DNA of 32,000 nt from an archaeon (GCA_041657425.1 JBBABY010000005.1:60001-92000); one strand, 5' to 3'. Positions 1-23,631 are shown, counted from the first letter of the stretch. A program made the numbers and translations. Notes: generated by a model from the sequence alone, not told the origin.

Positions 1-2
1 TT

Positions 3-371
3 TATCCGTATTGTACATCACTAACAAGAGCAGTAACTGATAATCCAGATATGGGTAAGATTATAGAGACTGATGTTTGTTTTCAATTAGATGCAAAATA
101 CTTTTTAAATAACAAAGGTAAAGAAGAAATAGATTTTCTACTTATAGACCCGATAACTTCTAAAAAGATAGGGGTAGAAGTAAAATATAGAAATTTAATA
201 ACAAATAAAGACGTAAGTGCATTTAGATCAGCGATAGTTAAAAAGTTAAATTTGGATAAAAGAATAATAATTGTAAAAGCAGAATCAAAATTAGATTTTA
301 ATACAAAAGAAATAGTTCCTGTCATGTATTTTACAATCTTTAAACACCAATCAGAATTCAAATTTAAATAA
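3..371 (+). CDS. C-terminal fragment of a COG1373-type ATPase (DUF4143, restriction-endonuclease-like domain), truncated by the window edge
   Basis: The frame is open from nt 3 through the listed ATG at 51 with no stop, so the ORF continues upstream of the window. EEIDFLLID...IGVEVKY resembles the E-x-D-F ... E-V-K core of DUF4143. Confidence 0.5.
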   Translation, partial: YPYCTSLTRAVTDNPDMGKIIETDVCFQLDAKYFLNNKGKEEIDFLLIDPITSKKIGVEVKYRNLITNKDVSAFRSAIVKKLNLDKRIIIVKAESKLDFNTKEIVPVMYFTIFKHQSEFKFK

Positions 372-555
372 ATAATTCTGGGAAAATATGAACTCGCAAA
401 AAAAGAAAAAAACAAAGAAGTTCTTTGCAGAATTAAATAAAAGAAGCATAGAAGCAAAAGATAAATCTAATTTTATTTCTTTAAGGTATTTATAAACACA
501 GTAAAGGCACTCTAATTCTTCCAAACACTTGGAAAAAACCATATATTTATAAATT

Positions 556-569
556 CCCCCCCCCCCCCC
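556..569. repeat. Homopolymeric C14 tract in the promoter/5' region of the surface-protein gene at 625
   Basis: Direct count gives 5 C (556-560) plus 9 C (561-569). It is flanked by TATA-like tttataaatt (546-555) upstream and the GGAGG RBS (612-616) downstream. Confidence 0.95.
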
Positions 570-624
570 ATAGATAATATAGTATTAAAAAATTAATTAA
601 AACAAAATTACGGAGGAAATTAAA

Positions 625-1461
625 ATGGCAAAAGAAAATAATAAAAAGCTAATCATTTGGGCGTTAGTCGCTTTAGTGGTTGGTGTAGTAATAGGTCTAC
701 TATTAACAAGTATAGTAACAACAGGAAATGCAGCAACCGCATTAGGTGAAAAATCAGCAACACTTGATACGAAAACCACAGAAGATAATGTAGTTGAATC
801 AAGAACAAACTTAGTATTAAACTTATTAAAAGTAAATAGAATTGAAAATAGAGACGAAGATTTATTAATTCATGCAAATAGTGGAACTGAACGTCTTATG
901 TTATGGGGAGACACAATGACAAATATTTGGGCTCCAAGCATAGATATTTCTGGATCTACAGCGGTCGCAATTTCTACACCTGTAAATTTTATAGGATTAG
1001 GAACAGATGGTATAAATATTTTTGCTCATAATTTTATGATTGCTAATTCAGAACAAACTCAAACAAATCCAATAATTTCACTTGATTTAGAAAATTCTGA
1101 ATTAGTCATAAATGCATCCACTACAAAATTTATAAATGTCGTATCTGTAAGTCCAATCATTTCAGAATATAGTGTAGGAGACACATTTACTATAGAAAAT
1201 AATACTATAGAAGTTGCTGCCATTTGGGATGCAAATGGAGTAGTTGAAATGCATTTGTTCGATGCAAATATGATAAATCCAATTGTTGAATTTTACGGAG
1301 AAGGAGATATAATCTTTAATCAATATTTAACTGCAAGTTTAAAAGTAGAAAATATTTCTCAAAATGTAGTAGGCATTGTGGTTTTACCAACAGGCAACTC
1401 ATATTATGCATGTATAGGATCTGATGGAACTTTGTTTAAAAGTAATTATCCATGTAACTAA
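625..1461 (+). CDS. Membrane-anchored or secreted surface protein, paralog 1 of the MAKENNKKLIIWALVAL family
   Basis: GGAGG lies 8 nt upstream of the ATG. It has an N-terminal basic stretch plus one hydrophobic helix. The first 38 nt of the CDS are identical to the gene at 13045. The C-terminal part contains two Cys. Confidence 0.8.
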   Translation: MAKENNKKLIIWALVALVVGVVIGLLLTSIVTTGNAATALGEKSATLDTKTTEDNVVESRTNLVLNLLKVNRIENRDEDLLIHANSGTERLMLWGDTMTNIWAPSIDISGSTAVAISTPVNFIGLGTDGINIFAHNFMIANSEQTQTNPIISLDLENSELVINASTTKFINVVSVSPIISEYSVGDTFTIENNTIEVAAIWDANGVVEMHLFDANMINPIVEFYGEGDIIFNQYLTASLKVENISQNVVGIVVLPTGNSYYACIGSDGTLFKSNYPCN

Positions 1462-3759: not shown

Positions 3760-5448
3760 ATGACACATTTACTATTATTGAATATTGCAATTATCATAAT
3801 TTGTGCAACAGTAATGACATTTATTTTTACTAAACTTAAACAACCATCTGTTCTCGCATTTATAGTAACTGGTATTTTAATAGGTCCGTTAGTTCTTGGT
3901 TGGGTTAATAATTCTGAAGAAATAATGTTAATTTCTGAAATTGGAATTGCCTTTCTTTTATTTAGTGTAGGAATTGGAACGGATTTAAAAGAATTAAAAA
4001 GTTTAAAATTATCGATTATTCTTTTGCCATTAATAAATATAGTTCTTATGTTTATATTTTTATTTGTATTTAGTAAAGTTATTAATCTCACATTAATTCA
4101 ATCATTATATTTTTCTGTCATATTGTCATTCAGTTCCACAATGTTAGTTGCTAAGATTTATTTAGATAATTTTATGATTGATTCTTTGCATGGGCGGATT
4201 GCGATCGGAATACTTCTTGTTGAAGATCTTATAGCCATTCTTGCAATTCCAATTTTAAAAAATTTCAGCGAATTTACATTTTTGATGTTTTTAATAATTC
4301 TTGCAAAGACTGCGGTATTTGTTCTTTTTGCTCTTTTTTTAAATAAAATTGTGTATCCTTATATTATAAAACAAGCATACAAATCTGAGCAAAGTTTCTT
4401 CTTATTATCAATTGCAAGTTGTTTTATATTTATTATGTTATCTTATCTTCTTGATTTTCCAATGGCCGTTGGTGCATTTTTTGGGGGGGTTGCAATTTCT
4501 ATTTATCCGTATAGTTACGAAATCTCTAATAAAATCTCAAGTATAAGAGATCTTTTAGCAACTATTGTTTTTGTATCTTTAGGTATGCAGTTATCTTTAA
4601 ATATTTCTAACGATATTTTCTTTATAATAGTAATATTTATACTTGCATTTATAATAAAACCAATAATTCATTTCTTTATGATTTTATTTGCAGGATATGG
4701 TACAAAAATTTCTTTAAGAGTATCTGGAGATTTAAACCAGATTTCTGAATTTTCGTTAATAATAGCAATGCAAGGAATCGCTTTGGGGCAAATTACAAGT
4801 TCACAATATGCAATAGTGATTATAATTACTTCTCTATCAATGTTAACAACACCTTATGTAATGCTTAATAGTGAAAAGATATATACTTTCTTTAAACCAA
4901 TAATGGATAGATTTAAGGAAGAATTTTGGCACAGGCAAATAAATTCATTGTCTACCATTTCAAAAGATATTAAAGATCACATAGTAGTAATTGGTTCAGA
5001 TGTAATGACTGAAGGTTTCATAAAAGTAGTTTCAAGAGATGTAGATCAACCAATTATCTTAGTGGATTATAATCCAGAAAAGTTATTAGCTTTTCAAAAC
5101 AAAAGAATAAAATATGTTTGTGGAGACATCAACTATAAAGAAGTAATGAATGCAGTAAATTTAAAAGAAGCAAAACTTGCAATATTGACTGCTCCAAAGT
5201 TTGATACAACAATAAGATTTCTAAAAACTGCAAAAACAATTAACCCTCGGCTTCCAATTTATGTTAGAGCAAAAACTAAAAAAGAAGCATTACAATTATA
5301 TGAGCTTGGTGCAGATTTAGTGATCTTACCACATGTTTTAGAATCAAATTATCTTCTTCAAAAAGTTTATTCTTTTGTTAAAGATGGTCCCGAAAGAAAC
5401 AAGGCTCTAAGATCTGAATATTTAAGTTATTTAAAAAAAGAAAATTAG
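3760..5448 (+). CDS. Cation:proton antiporter (CPA2/Kef-type) with a C-terminal RCK/TrkA-N domain, paralog of 1965..3674
   Basis: Same architecture as its divergent neighbour. The N-terminal helices are alignable (LKQPSVLAFIVTGILIGP vs LKQPLIIGYILTGIVVSP), and a C-terminal Rossmann-like VVIGSDVMTEG segment is present. Confidence 0.8.
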   Translation: MTHLLLLNIAIIIICATVMTFIFTKLKQPSVLAFIVTGILIGPLVLGWVNNSEEIMLISEIGIAFLLFSVGIGTDLKELKSLKLSIILLPLINIVLMFIFLFVFSKVINLTLIQSLYFSVILSFSSTMLVAKIYLDNFMIDSLHGRIAIGILLVEDLIAILAIPILKNFSEFTFLMFLIILAKTAVFVLFALFLNKIVYPYIIKQAYKSEQSFFLLSIASCFIFIMLSYLLDFPMAVGAFFGGVAISIYPYSYEISNKISSIRDLLATIVFVSLGMQLSLNISNDIFFIIVIFILAFIIKPIIHFFMILFAGYGTKISLRVSGDLNQISEFSLIIAMQGIALGQITSSQYAIVIIITSLSMLTTPYVMLNSEKIYTFFKPIMDRFKEEFWHRQINSLSTISKDIKDHIVVIGSDVMTEGFIKVVSRDVDQPIILVDYNPEKLLAFQNKRIKYVCGDINYKEVMNAVNLKEAKLAILTAPKFDTTIRFLKTAKTINPRLPIYVRAKTKKEALQLYELGADLVILPHVLESNYLLQKVYSFVKDGPERNKALRSEYLSYLKKEN

Positions 5449-6503
5449 ATATTTTTAAATTGTTTAACTAATTCTTCAATCTTCTCATCTACTCTCTTTA
5501 AAAATAATTTTGAATCTTGGTATTTATGATTTTTAAGTTTTTGTTTATATTTTGGGATATTTATTAAAAATTGTTTAAGACTTTTCTCATCAATTTTTGT
5601 GTGTGATTCTCCATATCCTAAAATATCAAGATAGTGTGCATTTGTTAATTGTTCAAATTGATGTTTCATAGGAATGGAGTAGATTGGTTTTTTGAAATAT
5701 AACGCTTCAGTAATTAATGTGTGCCCGCCATTAGTAATTATAGCTTTACATTCAGAAATATATTTAAACAGATTTGGTTCATTTTTTTTAAATGTAATAT
5801 TTCCATCAATTTTATCTTGATTATATCCAAATACAATGAATTTTTCAGTTTTAATTTTCTTAAGAACCGGGGTCACATTTGTTTTCTCCATAAATCTGTT
5901 ATACACAAGAATATACCCTTTGTCTTTAGATTTAAACTTTTTAATTTCGTCCATAAAAATAGGATCAAAGACTTCTGTATTCTTCTTAACAATGTTTGTT
6001 CTATAGAAACATAATCCAAAATAATAATTTGCAAAAGGATAAACTAATTTTGAAACTGCTTTTGCTTGAAAGAAATCTCCACTGTCCTTTGCTTTAAATT
6101 CAACATCTCCTCTAAAGATAGTTGCATGATTATCAATTTCAATAGTTGGGATCTCAAGCATCTTTCCTGCCCAAAGAGTATATCTCTCAAGATCTGAAAT
6201 AATTATATCTGGTTTATAATTATAAATGATTTTAGTTGTTTGTGTTAAGTTCTTTGCATTCTTTGCATTAAACCACCCAAAAAAACTTTTAGCAAGCTTT
6301 ACTCCTTCTTTACTATAAACAAAAACTGGTTGTTTAACAACATCAATTTTAATGTTAGGATATTTTTTTTCTAAGAAGTTAGCAACACTTTCATCTGTAA
6401 TAATTTGAATTTTGTGTCCTTTCTTAAGCAAGTGATCAATGATTGGAATACTTCTAGTGACATGTCCAAACCCATCTGAATTAAGTGCATATATAATCTT
6501 CAT
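5445..6503 (-). CDS. Glycosyltransferase (GT-B fold, MJ1255/GT28-like family)
   Basis: The N-terminal YALNSDGFGHVTRSIPIIDHL motif and the C-terminal ITNGGHTLITEAL motif are typical of MurG/MGT-like GT-B enzymes. Confidence 0.65.
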   Translation of the reverse strand: MKIIYALNSDGFGHVTRSIPIIDHLLKKGHKIQIITDESVANFLEKKYPNIKIDVVKQPVFVYSKEGVKLAKSFFGWFNAKNAKNLTQTTKIIYNYKPDIIISDLERYTLWAGKMLEIPTIEIDNHATIFRGDVEFKAKDSGDFFQAKAVSKLVYPFANYYFGLCFYRTNIVKKNTEVFDPIFMDEIKKFKSKDKGYILVYNRFMEKTNVTPVLKKIKTEKFIVFGYNQDKIDGNITFKKNEPNLFKYISECKAIITNGGHTLITEALYFKKPIYSIPMKHQFEQLTNAHYLDILGYGESHTKIDEKSLKQFLINIPKYKQKLKNHKYQDSKLFLKRVDEKIEELVKQFKNI

Positions 6504-6573
6504 AATAATATTATAAAATAAAGCAATTTTTAAATGTTTTTAAATACTCATTTTTATTAAAAGGAGCAAACAA

Positions 6574-12551: not shown

Positions 12552-12968
12552 ATGTTAAAAATATACTTTGCAGGATCAATTAGTGGTGGAAGAGATGACC
12601 AAGAAATCTATTTTGAATTAATAAATTATCTTAAGACTAAGGGACAAGTTCTAACAGAGCATATTTCAGATAAAAATTTAAGTTCTTATGGCGAGAGCAA
12701 TAAATTAACTTCTGAGCAAATCTTTACAAGAGATGTAAACTGGTTAAAAGAATCAGATATTGTTGTTGCAGAAGTTACTCAAGTTTCTTTAAGTGTTGGT
12801 TATGAATTAGGGCTTTCTGAAAGTTTAAATAAAAAAGTAATTTGCCTATATCGTCAAAAAGAAGGAAAAAGACTTTCAGCAATGATTTCTGGTAACCACA
12901 ACTTCTTAGTTAAAGAATATCAAACAATAGAAGAAGCAAAAAGGATTATTGATGAGATTTTCAAATGA
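12552..12968 (+). CDS. 2'-deoxynucleoside 5'-phosphate N-hydrolase (DNPH1/Rcl-like, nucleoside 2-deoxyribosyltransferase superfamily)
   Basis: IYFAGSISGGRDDQEIYFELINYLKTKGQVLTEHI closely parallels the DNPH1 signature IYFCGSIRGGRED...G.VLTEHV. A later VSLSVGYELG motif is also present. Confidence 0.75.
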   Translation: MLKIYFAGSISGGRDDQEIYFELINYLKTKGQVLTEHISDKNLSSYGESNKLTSEQIFTRDVNWLKESDIVVAEVTQVSLSVGYELGLSESLNKKVICLYRQKEGKRLSAMISGNHNFLVKEYQTIEEAKRIIDEIFK

Positions 12969-12969
12969 A

Positions 12970-13147
12970 CAATATATATATATATTTCGTTCATTCATTC
13001 TATTAAATTACAATTAAATAATTAAAAAATTGGAGGAAACCAAAATGGCAAAAGAAAATAATAAAAAGCTAATCATTTGGGCATTAGTAGCTTTAGTGAT
13101 TGGTGTAATAATAGGGTTAGTAATAACAAACCTGACAACAACAGGAA
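12970..13147 (+). repeat. Direct repeat copy 1: promoter + RBS + signal-anchor coding cassette of the surface-protein family
   Basis: Aligned by eye to 14062-14235. A 73-nt run (cgttcattcattc...atggcaaaagaaaata) and a 41-nt run (taatcatttgggc...ggtgtaata) are identical. An (AT)n tract at the 5' edge differs in length between copies. Confidence 0.9.
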
Positions 13148-13995
13148 AAGGGGGTTATATCTCTGAAATTCACCAGATTCGTCCAAAAACACAGGTTGGG
13201 ATAACTATGCCTATTCCAATTTATTTGGAGTTAGTTCAAGAAATAGATAGTGTTAATGGTGGAACAGGTACTATTAATAAGTATGCGTTTATTGAAAACG
13301 AAGAATTTCACTCTAATTTACCCGGGAAAGTTAGAAAAAATACCACCGTCAACTTTTCTGATGGCACAGTATTATCTGACGATTATACTTCAGAATTAGA
13401 GTATTCTGCATATTATTCAGAATATATTGCAGGAACCTTTTTTGGTCCATTTACTTCAATAGAGGCTACTATATATGATATGAAAGTAACTTCTATAATT
13501 GATGCACACTTTAAAATAGGTTCTAAAATAATACCTAAATCATTAACAACTGTATTTAATCCGAATGAAGATTTATTTGCAGTAGTTAATAGTCTTGATT
13601 TAGATTGTAGTGGTCAATATAATCTAACACATTCAGAAGTAGGAGATATTGATGAAATATCTGGGAATTTATATATTTCTCAATATAATCAAGGCACCGG
13701 TTGGACTAATGTTTTACAGGATTACCCTTTAGATTTAACCTCGTCAGCAGATAATACCTATACAGGATATATTCCAGCATCTGCAATAACTCAGTTAAAC
13801 AATGGAAGTCAGTACATTAGAGTGTCGATTAATAGTCACATTATTACTGCAACAGGATTACAAACAAGTGCAGAAATGCACAAATATCTAAATTGTCAAA
13901 CCAATAAATCTGAATCATTAACTCCTGAAGAAATAAAGGACGTGAGAAAGATAACAGGCTATAAATCAATAGATGAAAGAGCAAAAATAAAATAA
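13045..13995 (+). CDS. Membrane-anchored or secreted surface protein, paralog 2 of the MAKENNKKLIIWALVAL family
   Basis: I take the ATG at 13045 as the start, because the listed TTG at 13030 lies inside the GGAGGA RBS. It has one N-terminal TM. The ectodomain carries two conserved Cys (LDLDCSGQYNL, YLNCQTNK). Confidence 0.8.
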   Translation: MAKENNKKLIIWALVALVIGVIIGLVITNLTTTGKGGYISEIHQIRPKTQVGITMPIPIYLELVQEIDSVNGGTGTINKYAFIENEEFHSNLPGKVRKNTTVNFSDGTVLSDDYTSELEYSAYYSEYIAGTFFGPFTSIEATIYDMKVTSIIDAHFKIGSKIIPKSLTTVFNPNEDLFAVVNSLDLDCSGQYNLTHSEVGDIDEISGNLYISQYNQGTGWTNVLQDYPLDLTSSADNTYTGYIPASAITQLNNGSQYIRVSINSHIITATGLQTSAEMHKYLNCQTNKSESLTPEEIKDVRKITGYKSIDERAKIK

Positions 13996-14061
13996 GTTCT
14001 AACTACACAAAATGAGATTATTTAATTAATCTTATTTTTCTTTTTCTTTTTTCTTAAGCGG

Positions 14062-14235
14062 CAATATATATATATCGTTCATTCATTCTATTAAATTACA
14101 ATTAAATAATTAAAAAATTGGAGGAAACCAAAATGGCAAAAGAAAATAAAAAATCATTAATCATTTGGGCATTAGTAGCTTTAGTGATTGGTGTAATATT
14201 AGGATTAGTAATAACAAATTTATCAACAACAGGAC
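14062..14235 (+). repeat. Direct repeat copy 2: promoter + RBS + signal-anchor coding cassette of the surface-protein family
   Basis: See 12970-13147. A third, partial copy covers only the coding part at 625-730. Confidence 0.9.
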
Positions 14236-15080
14236 AAGCAAAATCTATAACAGAGGTTGCGCCAAGAACATTAATTGGCACGGGATATAATTTTGTATTA
14301 TATCAAAATATGAGTTTTGAAAATCCAAATGGAGAATATCTTTTATGGACGCAAGAAAACTTACAATCTAATGTTCCTGCAAGAATTAAAAAAGAATCTT
14401 CAATGTCATATAATTTAGACGATTTCAGACCATACTTTCTTAATTCTTCTATAACTAATACAGAAAGAGCAGAAAATAGCAATTTAGGTTATGCTGCATA
14501 TCCAGAAACTGTTTTATGGTTTCCAAACACAACAAACACCCCCACCGTGTCCTATTCTTATTTTACAGAATGGACTTTTGGTAATGGAGTGACTAAAACA
14601 GAAGGTACTGGTTATTCAGTAAATGAAAATTATAATTCATTTATAGAAGCAAGTTCTTTAAATGTAAATTGTTCTAATTATGAACTTGTTCATTCTACCC
14701 CTACGGGAATTAATTATCTTGGATATCAATTCTATATATATGATACAACTTACAATTATGATCAAGTTTATTACGGGTCTTGGATAGAAGCAAGAATAAA
14801 TCCTAACGGTATTCAACAAGGAAATTTGCCACAAGAGGCAATAGATATATTGCAAAATAATAATGGATATGAGGGAGTATTGATTGCACATATATCTACT
14901 ACCGAGAATATGTATACTGTGGTTTACAGTGCTAATACTTATTTAAATTGTCAAAATGGCGCAATTACTAAATTAAATTCTGATGGTTTACAAAAATTAC
15001 AACAAAAAACAGGAACTCCAATAGACGTAATAAAAAAATTACATGAAGAAGGTAAGATGCCTTTTACAGTACAAAAATAA
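14133..15080 (+). CDS. Membrane-anchored or secreted surface protein, paralog 3 of the MAKENNKKLIIWALVAL family
   Basis: ATG at 14133 follows GGAGGA. The N-terminal 40 aa are nearly identical to paralog 2. The remainder is only weakly similar (LNVNCSNYELV, YLNCQNGA). Confidence 0.8.
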   Translation: MAKENKKSLIIWALVALVIGVILGLVITNLSTTGQAKSITEVAPRTLIGTGYNFVLYQNMSFENPNGEYLLWTQENLQSNVPARIKKESSMSYNLDDFRPYFLNSSITNTERAENSNLGYAAYPETVLWFPNTTNTPTVSYSYFTEWTFGNGVTKTEGTGYSVNENYNSFIEASSLNVNCSNYELVHSTPTGINYLGYQFYIYDTTYNYDQVYYGSWIEARINPNGIQQGNLPQEAIDILQNNNGYEGVLIAHISTTENMYTVVYSANTYLNCQNGAITKLNSDGLQKLQQKTGTPIDVIKKLHEEGKMPFTVQK

Positions 15081-15093
15081 AATCAACTAGATT

Positions 15094-16761
15094 TTATTTT
15101 TCTTTTTCTTTTTTTTCTTTAGCTTTTTTTACAAATTCTACAAACAACGGGTGTGGAGTAAGTAGCTTTGATTTAAGTTCAGGGTGTGCTTGTGTTCCAA
15201 TAAAGAAAGGATGTTTCTTAATTTCAATAAATTCAAGAAGTTCTCCAGTTGGGTCCATTCCACAAAGCACAAGTCCTTTTTCTTTCAAGATTGAATGATA
15301 CTTTGGATTAACTTCATATCTATGTCTGTGTCTTTCAGTAATTTTGTTTTTACCATATATTTTTGCAACCTGTGATCCATCTTGTAATTCAGCAACACAA
15401 GACCCAAGCCTCATGCTTCCACCAATCTTTTTATTTTCTTGACCAGGAAGGATAGTAACAATTGGTTCTTTACAATCTTTGTCAATTTCTGTTGTGTGTG
15501 CCTCAGGCAGTCCACAAACATTTCTTGCATACTCAATAACAGCAAGTTGCATTCCGTAGCAAAGTCCTAAGTAAGGAACATTATTTTCTCTAGCATATCT
15601 AATAATATTTAATTTTCCATTAATTCCTCTAGCTCCAAAACCACCAGGAACAATAATTCCATCAAGTTCTTTAATTTCTGGAGAGTTGGAAACGCCATCT
15701 TCTTCATATTTCTCAGTATCAATAAGTCTAATTTCTAAAGATTCAGATACTGTGGTTTTAGCATGATGTAAGGCTTCAATAACTGAAGCATAAGAGTCGT
15801 CAATACCGGTGTATTTTCCACATATGCCAATAACAATTTTTTCTTTAGTTCCAGTTTCTATCTTTTTAACTGCTTCAATAAATTTATCGAATTCTAAATT
15901 AGTATTTATTTTTAATTTCTTAGAAATGAGTTTATCTAGTTTTTGATTTTTAAAATTAATCGGTATTTCGTAAATATTTTTAACATCACAACCAGAGATT
16001 AATTGTTCAGGTAGTAGTGCACAATTTTCAGTAAGTTTCTCAATAGCCTTCTTATCAAGCATCCGCTTTGCTCTACAGATGACTGCGTCAGGAATAATTC
16101 CTCTTTTAAGTAATTCAGCAATACTATTTTGTGCAGGTTTAGTTTTCTGTTCATCGCTTGGTGCAATTTCAGGAACATAAGCGAGATGTACAAAAAAAAC
16201 ATTTTCTTTTCCAAGTTTTCTTCTAATTCCTTTACAAGCAGTAATGTACAATTCATTTTCTAAATCTCCAACAGTTCCTCCAATTTCAAGAAGTACAATG
16301 TTTGCATCATTATCAAGTGCAGTTTTAATAACTCTATATTCTATGTAATTAGTAACTTCTGGTATTAACTTTACAGTTTTTCCTAAAAAAGCTCCGCTTC
16401 TCTCTAAGTCAATTATTTCTTTGTAGATTTTTCCCATTGTTAGGTTCTGAGATCCATTACAAGAAATATCTAAATATCTTTCATAATGTCCAAAATCCAT
16501 ATCCACTTCTGTTCCATCATCAAGAACAAAAACTTCTCCGTGTTCCACAGGGTTCATAGTCCCTGGATCAAAATTAAGATAACCATCACATTTGATTGGT
16601 ATTTTCTTAAGATCATTATCTAAAAGAAGAGCAATACTAGAAGCAGAAACTCCTTTACCAATCCCAGAAAGCACTCCGCCAGTAATTATTACAAATTTTA
16701 GTTTCTTGTCAATTGCTTGACTATAAATATCATTAGTTTCTTTATAATCCATAAATCTCAT
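15094..16761 (-). CDS. pyrG: CTP synthase
   Basis: FVIITGGVLSGIGKG and GTVGD..N motifs mark the N-terminal synthase domain. The C-terminal glutaminase domain has GLCYGMQ and the HRHRYEVN motif. Confidence 0.95.
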   Translation of the reverse strand: MRFMDYKETNDIYSQAIDKKLKFVIITGGVLSGIGKGVSASSIALLLDNDLKKIPIKCDGYLNFDPGTMNPVEHGEVFVLDDGTEVDMDFGHYERYLDISCNGSQNLTMGKIYKEIIDLERSGAFLGKTVKLIPEVTNYIEYRVIKTALDNDANIVLLEIGGTVGDLENELYITACKGIRRKLGKENVFFVHLAYVPEIAPSDEQKTKPAQNSIAELLKRGIIPDAVICRAKRMLDKKAIEKLTENCALLPEQLISGCDVKNIYEIPINFKNQKLDKLISKKLKINTNLEFDKFIEAVKKIETGTKEKIVIGICGKYTGIDDSYASVIEALHHAKTTVSESLEIRLIDTEKYEEDGVSNSPEIKELDGIIVPGGFGARGINGKLNIIRYARENNVPYLGLCYGMQLAVIEYARNVCGLPEAHTTEIDKDCKEPIVTILPGQENKKIGGSMRLGSCVAELQDGSQVAKIYGKNKITERHRHRYEVNPKYHSILKEKGLVLCGMDPTGELLEFIEIKKHPFFIGTQAHPELKSKLLTPHPLFVEFVKKAKEKKEKEK

Positions 16762-17038: not shown

Positions 17039-17121
17039 GCAGAGATGGCGGAGTGGCCAAACGCGCCAGCCTTGAGAGCTGGAGTCGAAAGACTACGCGA
17101 GTTCGAATCTCGTTCTCTGCG
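17039..17121 (+). tRNA. tRNA-Ser (anticodon UGA), class II
   Basis: Acceptor stem is GCAGAGA/TCTCTGC and the D-stem is 3 bp. The anticodon stem CCAGC/GCTGG carries loop CTTGAGA. The long variable arm is AGTCGAAAGACTAC. The T-arm is GCGAG-TTCGAAT-CTCGT and the discriminator is G. Confidence 0.9.
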
Positions 17122-17145
17122 CTTAAAATTGTTAAAAGATCATTT

Positions 17146-17902: not shown

Positions 17903-17903
17903 T

Positions 17904-17986
17904 GCAGAGGTGGTGGAGTGGTCAAACGCACTAGCCTGGAAAGCTAGAGTCGAAAGACTACGCGAGTTCGAATCTCGTCCTCTGCG
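17904..17986 (+). tRNA. tRNA-Ser (anticodon GGA), class II
   Basis: Acceptor stem is GCAGAGG/CCTCTGC. The anticodon stem CTAGC/GCTAG carries loop CTGGAAA. The variable arm is AGTCGAAAGACTAC. The T-arm is GCGAG-TTCGAAT-CTCGT and the discriminator is G. Confidence 0.9.
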
Positions 17987-18202
17987 ATTAAATTTAGATC
18001 AACAGTTTGCTGTAAGTGAGCTTGTAGACTGGATTAAAGGCAAGAAGCTCGCCCACGACTACGAAACAGGACTAATTTCTAAAATCCCGCTAATCTTCGA
18101 AGATACTCAAAAACATACGTACGTTTCTGAAAAGTGTTCTCAACAAAATCTTTTTAAATACAATATACAATAACTATTTATAGAAATAAAGTGTGATAAA
18201 AA

Positions 18203-18880
18203 ATGGTTGTAAGAAAATTAACAAAAGGCAGTTTCCCAAATGCAAAAAATATTAAGAGCATTAAAATAGGAGGTCGTAAATTCGTTGCAGAAAAGAAACA
18301 GACAGCAGACATAAAACTAGAAATAAATAAAGAAAAAATTAAAATAATCAGTTCTTTAAAAAAACGTCTAGAGAGAGGAGAATTAAAATTAACCAGTGCC
18401 GATTTAATGAAATTAAAGGCACAGGGAATTAGCCTGATTGAATTAAGAAAAGTAATAGCTCCAGAATATTTGTTAAAAACTTTGAGTTTAAAAGCATTTG
18501 TAAAAATATATGGTCAAGAAGATGTAGTTAAGGCTTTTAATGGTATTTCCCGATTAATATTTGATGCTGGTTTGAGGGAGACAGTTTATGCTATTGATCC
18601 AAAATATTTTAAAAATGAATTTTCATTAAAAGAAATTGTGAATAAGCTTTTTAAATACGGCTACAAGGATGTGTCACAGTATAGGGCCCCAGATATGCAA
18701 AGCTATATGTCACAAAATGGACGTTATGAAGTAGCAAAGGCTTGGGGGCTTAAGAATATAATAGAAACATTTGGGATTAAAGAGACTATGGTGGCTATGG
18801 GTAGATCAGAATCTGAACTTAGATCTTTATTAAATGCATCAGATTACGATTTAGGGAAAGCTTTTCCTCGCGAATATTAG
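18203..18880 (+). CDS. Hypothetical protein (225 aa)
   Basis: Long ORF with a lysine-rich N-terminus and no motif I recognise. Its TAG stop is the first three nt of att-like repeat R1. Confidence 0.6.
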   Translation: MVVRKLTKGSFPNAKNIKSIKIGGRKFVAEKKQTADIKLEINKEKIKIISSLKKRLERGELKLTSADLMKLKAQGISLIELRKVIAPEYLLKTLSLKAFVKIYGQEDVVKAFNGISRLIFDAGLRETVYAIDPKYFKNEFSLKEIVNKLFKYGYKDVSQYRAPDMQSYMSQNGRYEVAKAWGLKNIIETFGIKETMVAMGRSESELRSLLNASDYDLGKAFPREY

Positions 18881-18920
18881 AGTCTCACGACTACGCGAGT
18901 TCGAATCTCGTCCTCTGCGA
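18878..18920 (+). repeat. att-like repeat R1: copy of the 3' 43 nt of tRNA-Ser(GGA)
   Basis: tagagtcTCACgactacgcgagttcgaatctcgtcctctgcga is 40/43 identical to 17945-17987. The only differences are in the variable-arm loop (gaaa vs tcac). Confidence 0.9.
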
Positions 18921-18944
18921 TTTTTTATTTTGTGTTTAAATTGC

Positions 18945-22125: not shown

Positions 22126-22203
22126 GTAACTTTCTTTTTTATTTTTTTAGTAAGCGGCTAGTGAAAGAATGTGACTTGCAAAAAAGTATCGGTACTAGAA
22201 TGC

Positions 22204-22246
22204 GAGAGTCTCACGACTACTCGATTTCGAATCTAGTCTTATGCAA
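22204..22246 (+). repeat. att-like repeat R2: degenerate copy of the tRNA-Ser 3' segment
   Basis: gagagtctcacgactactcgatttcgaatctagtcttatgcaa is about 36/43 identical to R1 and shares the R-specific tctcacgactac signature. Confidence 0.7.
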
Positions 22247-22371
22247 TTCAATTCTAAGTAAGCATTTTGCGGCAAGTTGATTTGTATCGCGTGCATTGAC
22301 TAAATTGTTTTAGATATATTTTTAAATTAGTTCTTATTAGTATATTTAGATTTTTATAAAGGAGGAATAAT

Positions 22372-22906: not shown

Positions 22907-23557
22907 ATGAATAATGAGCCAGTAACTAATACAAATAAAGAATATCCTAAAAAAAAAGGGATATCTGTCAAATTTTTAATATCTCTTGGTATAATTTTAA
23001 TAATTATAATTTTGGCAGTTATTTTGGTTTCCAAAGCAATATATAATAGAGATATTAGTACAAATATAAATAATTTTGATGAATGTATTGAGGCAGGAAA
23101 TCCCGTAGTTGCGGGGACTTATCCTATACAATGTAAAACACTAGACGGAAAACTATTTATTTCTACTTCAGATAATATTGAGAATAAACCTAAGCATGTT
23201 GATGATTTAATATTTGTAGAAAGACAAGCAACTAATTTTGAGGAATGTTTAAACTGGGGTTTCGTTTCCCAAGGTTATCCTGAATATTGTACAGATGGGA
23301 ATTCTACATTTATTAATCCTAAACATACAAGTGCTCCAACACTAGCAGAACAACAGATTTGTAATACTGATAGCGAATGTACAGGACTGCCAAATCCTTG
23401 TCATAGAACAAGGGTATGTATTAATAAAAAGTGGGTGTCTTTTTACAAAATTAAGCCAGCAGCGTGTACTTTAGAAATAGATCTTTTAGCAGTGTCTCCT
23501 GGAGATTGTGTTTGTCTAAATACAGTCTGTACAAATAAGAAGTTAATTCAAAGTTAG
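22907..23557 (+). CDS. Cysteine-rich membrane-anchored or secreted protein (hypothetical)
   Basis: It has an N-terminal TM (ISVKFLISLGIILIIIILAVILV) and an ectodomain with about 14 Cys in repeated C-x-x-x-C-like spacing. Its TAG stop is the first three nt of repeat R3. Confidence 0.65.
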   Translation: MNNEPVTNTNKEYPKKKGISVKFLISLGIILIIIILAVILVSKAIYNRDISTNINNFDECIEAGNPVVAGTYPIQCKTLDGKLFISTSDNIENKPKHVDDLIFVERQATNFEECLNWGFVSQGYPEYCTDGNSTFINPKHTSAPTLAEQQICNTDSECTGLPNPCHRTRVCINKKWVSFYKIKPAACTLEIDLLAVSPGDCVCLNTVCTNKKLIQS

Positions 23558-23597
23558 AGTCTCATGACTACGCAAGTTCGAATCTCGCCATCTGCGA
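23555..23597 (+). repeat. att-like repeat R3: copy of the tRNA-Ser 3' segment
   Basis: tagagtctcatgactacgcaagttcgaatctcgccatctgcga is 39/43 identical to R1. Confidence 0.85.
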
Positions 23598-23631
23598 ATT
23601 ATTATTTAATAAACTATTTTGTGAAAAAAAC

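Follow-up and report, generated by a model that had tools for sequence, protein, structure and literature searches.

Simple repeats in or against the core promoters of surface-protein genes are known from several bacteria, among them the C-stretch of Bordetella pertussis fim2 and fim3, the (TA)n tract of Haemophilus influenzae hifA/B and the poly-C/G tracts of Neisseria opc and porA. In the Bordetella fim C-stretch, the tract sets the distance of an upstream element. Other families keep a constant 5′ end, as do Mycoplasma hyorhinis vlp, M. bovis vsp and the Borrelia erp/ospEF/elp genes with their upstream homology box, and in Mycoplasma vlp a promoter homopolymer governs on/off expression. Gram-positive bacteria have family-specific Sec signal peptides of the YSIRK-G/S and KxYKxGKxW types, while the pneumococcal capsule loci between dexB and aliA and the Borrelia ospC types show how discrete classes of surface-antigen alleles can be exchanged between conserved neighbours. 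DPANN archaea are believed to live in attachment to other cells, and slippery-repeat phase variation is a hallmark of host-adapted bacteria; to our knowledge, the only diversification device tied to DPANN is a diversity-generating retroelement. Here, we describe three genes, A, B and C, on a 32,000-nucleotide (nt) stretch of archaeal DNA (GCA_041657425.1, JBBABY010000005.1:60001–92000), referred to throughout as the window, which most closely resemble the repeat-bearing and constant-5′ systems.

Bacterial simple-sequence contingency loci are treated in PMC1891110 and in a review, PMC11868660. The same 2025 review lists the distribution of phase variation in archaea as an open question for future work, and the one paper traced that asserts archaeal contingency loci cites, as its sole archaeal reference, a 1987 survey of simple repeats. 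In the literature searched, whose coverage is incomplete, we found no report of simple-repeat phase variation in archaea; novelty is provisional.

Like fim2/fim3, hifA/B and opc/porA, genes A, B and C carry a C or (AT)n tract in or against the core promoter of putative surface-protein genes, with tract lengths that are polymorphic among isolates and several loci per genome. Unlike the bacterial loci, they belong to an archaeon with promoters of the TATA-binding protein/transcription factor B (TBP/TFB) type, place two interchangeable repeat types before the same leader, and have a switching behaviour that is predicted from sequence. Because the promoter is of TBP/TFB type, the spacing logic of −10/−35 elements or activator sites is not simply transferable. 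In our reading, A, B and C recombine, are probably phase-variable and encode proteins that an episymbiotic archaeon exports or displays on its surface; the switching itself is what we infer, and we put the probability of this reading at roughly 0.55. Each gene joins a conserved N-terminal leader to an ectodomain of one of two families, Fam1 or Fam2. The features concerned, all on the plus strand, are as follows.

541–555, plus strand: conserved A/T-rich TATA-like block ATATATTTATAAATT to the left of the gene C poly-C tract; the same block, GATATATTTATAAAAT, stands before the poly-C tract in L013, L021, L022, L028 and L041.
556–569, plus strand: poly-C tract (C14), ending 55 nt before the gene C ATG.
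570–624, plus strand: poly-C-type promoter and 5′ untranslated region of gene C, with TATA-like ATAGATAATATA at 570–581 and the ribosome site GGAGGA at 612–617.
625–1461, plus strand: gene C, leader plus Fam2 ectodomain ending in Y.C...S.YPCN; its slot adjoins DUF1699.
625–732, plus strand: leader of gene C, codons 1–36, ending TTGNA; module profile match P0012, 78 bits.
12972–12985, plus strand: (AT)7 tract, ending 59 nt before the gene A ATG.
12986–13044, plus strand: (AT)n-type promoter and 5′ untranslated region of gene A, containing CGTTCATTCATTCTATTAAAT, with GGAGGA at 13032–13037.
13045–13995, plus strand: gene A, leader plus Fam1 ectodomain, predicted all-beta with conserved Cys188/Cys284 and C-terminal helices.
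13045–13152, plus strand: leader of gene A, MAKENNKKLIIWALVALVIGVIIGLVITNLTTTGKG, with an AlphaFold helix over residues 6–33.
14064–14075, plus strand: (AT)6 tract, ending 57 nt before the gene B ATG.
14076–14132, plus strand: (AT)n-type promoter and 5′ untranslated region of gene B, with GGAGGA at 14120–14125.
14133–15080, plus strand: gene B, leader plus Fam1 ectodomain of another allelic class than A; its slot adjoins pyrG.
14133–14240, plus strand: leader of gene B, MAKENKKSLIIWALVALVIGVILGLVITNLSTTGQA.

A reading made from the sequence alone had described about 175 nt common to A and B, covering the (AT)n tract, promoter, GGAGGA and some 35 codons, and this repeat (D1) is 93% identical between 12976–13150 and 14064–14238; the same segment of A aligns to gene C (556–730) at 68%. 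The 57 nt before the ATG are 100% identical in A and B. Exact ungapped runs measure 75 nt (12987–13061), where 73 had been given, and 41 nt (13070–13110), as had been stated. In a 40-nt sliding window, A/B identity stays at 0.82–1.00 across 12968–13147, drops to 0.62 in the boundary window (13128–13167) and lies beyond it at 0.40–0.65, mostly near 0.5. This profile makes the drop at about 13147 a step without a gradient, and the collapse reported to follow the transmembrane helix appears as a fall from 89% identity over codons 1–35 to 33% over the following 105 nt. The whole proteins are nonetheless homologous along their full length (29% identity, E 2e-27; ectodomains only, 22–23%), and the ectodomain motifs named in the sequence-only reading, a Cys pair, SN[LV]P..K and YLNCQ, are each present.

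Gene C shares with A an exact 41-nt run (13042–13082) composed of 3 nt of spacer and the first 38 coding nt, in agreement with the 38 nt claimed for it, and its ribosome site is likewise GGAGGA. The proposal that it is a third member of the same family holds for the leader but not for the ectodomain, which belongs to a different cargo family: the A/C protein match is confined to residues 1–37 (73% identity) and the ectodomains are unrelated. Further leader genes, which the sequence-only reading had suggested looking for, are numerous. A protein search with A returned full-length Fam1 relatives and also proteins that match only its first 12% (73–83% identity), the remainder resembling gene C (Fam2). 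A degenerate DNA pattern for the helix retrieved six loci in species-representative genomes and 14 metagenome loci, which fuse the module to more unrelated C-terminal parts, including Cys-rich proteins of 86–123 residues. With a 40-position leader profile run against 1.84 billion representative proteins (cut-off E ≤ 0.001), we obtained 114 clusters, with the match at residues 1–40 in nearly all; the 107 cargos of at least 30 residues fall into 61 groups unlinked by BLAST. No silent or promoterless cassettes were found in the window.

The clearest candidate for a variation device is the (AT)n tract, mentioned only in passing in the sequence-only reading, together with its poly-C counterpart at gene C. 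Two promoter cassettes occur before the leader. The first has the consensus (AT)6–9, CGGTT, a Y-rich stretch and a TATTAA-like box; the second reads GATATATTTATAAAAT-C(9–17)-ATTAATAATATA, and this gene C-type cassette is conserved across cargo families and genomes. Most leader genes of the other loci have a long repeat, and both tract types end 48–63 nt before the ATG in aligned upstream regions. Cassette type is not tied to cargo family: within Fam1, A and B have (AT)n and P0004, P0005, P0007 and P0008 have poly-C, and Fam2 is likewise mixed, with poly-C at gene C and (AT)n at P0009. The C14 tract is the sole C/G run of at least 8 nt in the window, and the only (AT) tracts of at least six units are the two upstream of A and B; the three long repeats of the window thus coincide exactly with its three leader genes. 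Across the other archaeal loci compared, nearly every long tract occupies a leader-gene promoter position, the sole exception being L002 13–22.

To place the tracts within the promoter, the upstream regions of about 29 window genes were compared for TATA-like boxes. In genes with a GGAGG site, the box starts 47–55 nt before the ATG. This spacing suggests that the TATA-like block after the poly-C tract is in the usual position, with poly-C at the site of the TFB-recognition element (BRE). As for the (AT)n type, the tract could double as the TATA box, and BRE-like GCCGAAGG stands before it in L002, L003 and L014. The combination of a strong GGAGG with a TATA-like box 47–55 nt upstream is seen in a minority of window genes, including all leader genes. 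Many housekeeping genes of the window instead have a box starting 29–44 nt before the ATG and no GGAGG, and on account of both features many of them are probably leaderless.

Tract lengths, taken from assembled contigs, differ between populations. P0007, a Fam1 gene in the same pyrG slot of a related species, encodes an identical protein on 16 contigs from independent samples; on eight of these the tract reads C11, C11, C13, C13, C13, C16, at least C17 and C10AC4, with mostly identical flanks. Five of ten P0007 contigs shown end less than 100 nt upstream of the gene. P0005 has C13 and C16, the gene C tract is C14 in the window and C15 on L017, and P0009 has (AT)8 in L021 and (AT)7 in L036. Repeats in or against the core promoter whose lengths differ between populations suggest phase variation, and the persistence of uninterrupted C runs at one promoter position, across species with AT-rich genomes, argues that selection keeps the C tracts.

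The same data could be read differently. The family and its recombination may be real while the tracts are fixed promoter elements, serving as a TATA box, as a BRE-like spacer or as stiff DNA that keeps histones off, with lengths that reflect neutral drift or sequencing artefact. The resemblance of (AT)n to an archaeal TATA box behind a BRE-like sequence suits this explanation, as does the histone gene in the genome; contigs that are nearly identical mostly agree in (AT)n length, and contigs often break at poly-C, also for technical reasons. It is harder to reconcile with C9–17 runs at 27–33% G+C, where decay would be expected, with a range from 11 to at least 17 at one identical gene across independent samples and assemblers, and with two unrelated repeat types in the same position. 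The tie to exported-protein genes, moreover, is the one known from bacterial contingency loci (see also PMC11868660). We regard fixed elements as unlikely, at about one chance in four.

Other observations concern the tracts and their surroundings. At 12964–12995 of the window, the gene A (AT)7 lies within a longer palindrome, AATGAAC-A-(AT)7-TTC-GTTCATT, the left half of which runs into the stop codon of a nucleoside deoxyribosyltransferase-like gene located upstream. No such left arm is present at gene B, and in other (AT)n cassettes the symmetry is a loose AAC...GTT. A search of the window for inverted repeats flanking the promoter or cassette gave short low-complexity matches only, and an invertible-promoter or shufflon switch was rejected because no invertible segments were found in the window. 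A coding A17 run over codons 2–7 in L020 was judged a probable contig-end artefact, as ten other contigs of the same gene lack it. In the same contig (L020 13735–13830), the P0007 promoter and first codons are ‘A-washed’ near the contig end (for example, ATGGAAAAAAAAAAAAAAAAATCA), with neighbouring bases also turned to A.

Conservation of the leader extends to the DNA, to a degree well past what selection on the protein would account for. Between B and P0007, from another species, 31 of 32 codons for identical leader residues match, against 0.65 in pyrG and 0.63 in the remainder of the gene. Over 18 leaders, most MAKEN-type pairs have a codon match of 0.85–1.0, including pairs across genomes and cargo families, where 0.42 is expected from codon usage. 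The leaders of L019 and L020-994 match at about 0.5 with the peptide kept, which indicates that the leader DNA sequence is not obligatory. The earlier idea that recombination holds the module constant is thus largely borne out, except that gene conversion within one genome does not suffice, the leader being lineage-wide.

Part of this conservation may lie in the messenger RNA, for which a fold was predicted.

13069–13103 (gene A), 14157–14191 (gene B) and 649–683 (gene C), plus strand: predicted mRNA hairpin (9 + 4 base pairs), codons 9–20.

Over the 18 leaders, 94% of cells are paired, compared with 20–53% when the partner is slid, and one pair at third codon positions covaries (C-G, U-A, A-U), as Ile ATC/Val GTG changes to ATT/GTA and ATA/GTT. 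The folding z-scores are −1.4 to −1.9, and 10–12 of 500 shuffles reach the observed values. Support for the hairpin is modest; it may explain the retention of the rare ATC and GTG codons at 29% G+C. On this basis, the conserved ribosome site and leader might be a functional mRNA element, such as a hairpin or a signal for translation or targeting, rather than a product of homogenisation. The prediction in all three genes, the pair-preserving changes and the covarying pair agree with such an element, but the z-scores, the shuffles and the limit to a single covarying pair temper them. Codons 21–36, which lie beyond the hairpin, match just as often; the hairpin cannot explain conservation off the stem, and L019 and L020 keep the peptide at about 50% of codons. 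An RNA element would also leave promoter swaps and allelic incongruence unexplained. As a substitute for homogenisation we think it improbable, although it is compatible with recombination as an added layer.

The slot beside pyrG bears on how such genes recombine, and three features define its 3′ side.

14029–14059, plus strand: 3′ flank of gene A, a T-rich putative terminator and relic copy of the pyrG 3′ end and gene B 3′ flank.
15091–15123, plus strand: 3′ flank of gene B, overlapping the pyrG stop and last codons; likely the 3′ homology arm of the slot.
15094–16761, minus strand: pyrG.

The B locus and that of its orthologue P0004 (L032) are about 87% identical in nucleotides through leader, ectodomain and pyrG, but identity is lost upstream of about 14105, just 5′ of the ribosome site, where B carries an (AT)6 cassette but P0004 one with C12, a promoter swap. 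Downstream of gene A, the 3′ flank matches 15091–15123 at 29 of 31 bases with one 2-nt gap, a score that none of 2000 shuffles equalled. The swap is a real recombinant junction, and together with this pyrG-tail relic it supports the recombination proposed in the sequence-only reading. Because both ends of the A unit match B while the interior is saturated, the simplest reading is that unequal recombination has brought two slot alleles, A and B, into tandem.

Over the last 200 residues of pyrG, five genomes are 86–93% identical to one another, whereas the Fam1 ectodomains beside it are 28–34% identical in every pair except B/P0004 (85%). The pyrG sequences are most alike (93%) between the window and L022, yet their ectodomains are 30% identical. 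We count at least six deep allelic classes of ectodomain at the pyrG slot. As in the capsule and ospC systems, a single slot with conserved flanks receives deeply divergent inserts whose distribution is discordant with the flanking genes; unlike in those systems, the 5′ homology arm lies inside the gene, in the leader, and the classes share only 28–34% protein identity. The suggestion that ectodomains diversify rapidly in place did not survive: since the identity of about 87% between B and P0004 is spread evenly over the gene, at a level comparable to that of pyrG, we reject ectodomain hypermutation. Ectodomain divergence instead reflects old, discrete allelic classes that have been exchanged or differentially lost.

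Could ordinary tandem duplication and divergence, with purifying selection keeping leader and promoter, account for the locus with neither recombination nor switching? A and B are in tandem and homologous along their full length, and the B ectodomain evolves at the pyrG rate relative to P0004, with no hypermutation. Such a history does not readily yield 57 noncoding nt at 100% identity and a neutral 3′ relic at 29/31 around a saturated interior, nor leader synonymous identity of 0.85–1.0, above the 0.65 of pyrG, even between species. The promoter cassette, furthermore, differs between close orthologues, and the ectodomain classes do not track pyrG. We consider duplication of this kind very unlikely.

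No extra ectodomain copies were found by tblastn, and no repeat pair was found in or near the ectodomains. A diversity-generating retroelement target was rejected, there being no template/variable repeat pair and the B/P0004 differences being even, with no patch; no reverse transcriptase was found among the neighbours scanned against Pfam or with precomputed Pfam hits, a set that leaves the other window open reading frames (ORFs) unscanned. An RHH/ParE toxin–antitoxin pair stands directly beside leader genes on four contigs of related genomes (L036 1753–1968, L039 1185–1673, L040 1136–1624 and L041 886–1372): it follows Fam2 genes, and at the pyrG slot it comes before a Fam1 gene. This placement hints that the slots are insertion hotspots.

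The leaders follow the pattern M-A/K-K...LIIWAxVALVIGVxIG...TTG-x-A, and in the 5′ cassette as a whole GGAGGA is followed, after 7 nt of spacer, by some 36 leader codons. Counted over 112 leader proteins, the W is present in 98%, with glycines at W+8 (99%) and W+12 (100%), and the n-region has a mean net charge of +2.2 (minimum +1). The h-region is about 22 residues long (LIIWALVALVIGVILGLVITNL), in a single predicted helix over residues 6–33; a typical Sec h-region has about 7–15, and the length also fits a membrane anchor. After the helix, G-x-A occurs in 103 of the 112, with its A at residue 34–38 in 101, and conservation stops directly past this motif. A lipobox Cys and a class III [KR][GA] site before the helix were each found in 0/112 leaders, and the residue preceding the helix varies (S, K or L). 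The cargos are mostly small and Cys-rich; at least four Cys are present in 58% of them and an even number in 89%, the even count being indirect support for an extracellular location. The other exported proteins of the window (a serpin, DUF4349 and the 22907 ORF) have N-termini unrelated to the leader. These features point to a dedicated, lineage-wide Sec-type export leader or signal anchor, which is probably cut after G-x-A but may stay as an anchor.

Like the YSIRK-G/S and KxYKxGKxW peptides, the leader is an unusually conserved signal on a subset of exported proteins, with ordinary signals elsewhere; unlike them, it shows no similarity to either motif, and its conservation spans the whole helix and the codon choice. 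The likeness to vlp, vsp and erp lies in a promoter, ribosome-site and leader cassette set on divergent or unrelated mature domains, with recombination at the cassette. Those are lipoproteins with a lipobox Cys, in contrast to the long W-x7-G-x3-G helix ending in G-x-A found here, and our cargos are far more diverse (61 groups) and the host is an archaeon. Archaeal type IV pilins and archaellins have a comparable short charged N-terminus, conserved hydrophobic helix and variable globular part, but their [KR]-[GA] cleavage site is missing from all 112 leaders, and canonical examples coexist in the same lineage (L006). A rival that we hold highly improbable takes the leader for a class III (pilin-type) signal with its helix, and the proteins for subunits of a type IV pilus-like filament in which the conserved helices pack in the core and variable heads are exposed. 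In keeping with it would be the conserved hydrophobic N-terminal helix that precedes differing C-terminal parts, the Cys pairs that Fam1 and Fam2 have close to their C-terminal end, the G-x3-G helix-packing motif and weak, non-significant matches to a pilin-like conjugal protein (E 0.03–0.05). Against it, the cleavage site is absent and the pre-helix residue varies, G-x-A stands past the helix as at a signal-peptidase I site, and 61 unrelated cargos, some of 567–599 residues, are unlike pilin sets.

Several contigs add observations on leader-like genes. L006 has, at 4457–6567 on the minus strand, two adjacent genes with canonical class III signals (MKMNKKG|ASEV.. and MIKTKKG|LSSL..) in addition to a leader gene. 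On L002, a second, more divergent leader gene (MENIKKLLLWIVISLIIGLIIGFLLQN..; 1–229, minus strand) lies directly downstream of a leader gene of MKIKSEKTK type, a pair which suggests that tandem leader-gene arrays occur in other genomes too; a C10 run lies in or after the divergent gene, at the contig end. Two higher-G+C contigs, L007 (6746–7048, in a metagenome-assembled genome (MAG) labelled Candidatus Berkelbacteria, a CPR bacterium, 44% G+C) and L010 (1332–1673), encode Cys-containing proteins of 100–113 residues whose N-terminal helix, TIIWAIVALV[IV]GV, matches the leader DNA pattern. In L010, moreover, the start follows closely on a G9 run. The likeness of these two to the leader could be due to chance, mis-binning or cross-domain sharing.

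Taken as recombining, phase-variable genes, A, B and C would belong to a lineage-specific superfamily defined by its 5′ cassette rather than by the mature protein, its members being secreted or held in the membrane by the N-terminus. Every gene would come with a promoter cassette to itself, for which two interchangeable types exist, with the repeat in or against the core promoter; replication slippage would alter promoter geometry and so switch or tune transcription at random. In the poly-C cassette, the length of the tract would determine how far away the conserved A/T block upstream of it lies. The leader DNA would serve as a shared recombination junction, upstream of which promoter cassettes are swapped and downstream of which entire alleles of the ectodomain are traded or sorted, pyrG providing the second arm of homology. 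The outcome would be that a single slot of the chromosome holds allelic classes that are discrete and very old, and the presumed benefit a varied surface facing hosts, viruses and competitors. A broader version of this proposal, in which a repeat-driven contingency system of (AT)n and poly-C cassettes randomly switches a secretome of more than 60 families, and the shared leader is the junction at which strains and species swap promoters and ectodomain alleles, is tentative, and we place its chances somewhat below even.

A number of points weigh against recombining, phase-variable genes. The effect of tract length on transcription is purely inferred, and where the repeat lies with respect to BRE and TATA is uncertain. 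Illumina assemblies are prone to errors at long C/G runs, which could make some of the length variation technical, and (AT)n variation was seen only once (7 versus 8), with (AT)9 on all three P0014 contigs and no difference between the window and L001. Leader genes without a repeat occur in L006, L008, L016 and L020 (at 971). A conserved hairpin could account for part of the conservation at the DNA level, and the deep ectodomain classes could stem from ancient tandem paralogues and differential loss rather than exchange. Finally, the helix is long for a cleaved signal peptide, and both export and cleavage are deduced from the sequence.

If the tracts do switch transcription, simple-repeat bet-hedging would have evolved on a TBP/TFB promoter, providing a natural system for spacer-length effects on archaeal initiation and, for the episymbiont, a modular surface-variation toolkit. 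In addition, the leader fits on one line as a sequence tag, with which a secretome of this lineage that would otherwise escape annotation (114 clusters) can be retrieved, and the proteins so tagged are candidate host-contact, toxin or adhesin proteins. As a homology arm within the gene, the leader would be an example of modular 5′-end evolution.

Domain and structure searches gave little on the ectodomains themselves. For the 20 to 21 leader proteins scanned, namely A, B, C and at least 17 others, Pfam and NCBIfam returned nothing at or above curated cut-offs. The AlphaFold model of Fam1 is all-beta, with a predicted local distance difference test score (pLDDT) of 61.6 overall and 70–86 across most of the C-terminal half; in Foldseek, it matched only generic tandem beta-sandwiches (transglutaminase C-terminal domains, Vps26 and RbmA) at a template modelling score of about 0.2. 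Fam2 is poorly modelled (pLDDT 55.3) and gave no significant Foldseek match. The ectodomains are consistent with surface or adhesin-like proteins, although the predicted structures are not diagnostic.

The window has a G+C content of 29% and encodes an archaeal histone, DUF1699, CTP synthase (pyrG) and further housekeeping genes. Within the subset of its ORFs scanned, the neighbours of A, B and C are nucleoside deoxyribosyltransferase (NDT), DUF4349, DUF1015, pyrG and DUF1699. The gene C slot is syntenic in other genomes, L020 971–1546 likewise adjoining a DUF1699 orthologue; the exact gene C product had no match on record. Viral contigs in IMG/VR yielded no match to the family, and these zero matches together with the chromosomal, syntenic slots led us to reject a viral origin. 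The sources of related contigs are archaeal MAGs as well as metagenomes from activated sludge and other environments. One related MAG (L003) is labelled ‘Candidatus ainarchaeum sp.’, probably Iainarchaeum. We treat the source organism as an uncultured DPANN-type archaeon of an AT-rich clade.

Elsewhere in the window, at 18877–18930, 22203–22256 and 23554–23607, lie three extra 3′ parts of tRNA-Ser, each comprising variable arm, T arm and acceptor, in addition to full genes at 17039–17122 and 17903–17987. The partial copies are 74–100% alike (89% and 74% to the reference copy), and two of them abut the ends of ORFs (18203–18880 and 22907–23557). Neither ARAGORN, with or without introns, nor Rfam called a tRNA at these copies. 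They look like attachment-site remnants of integrated elements, or possibly split-tRNA halves.

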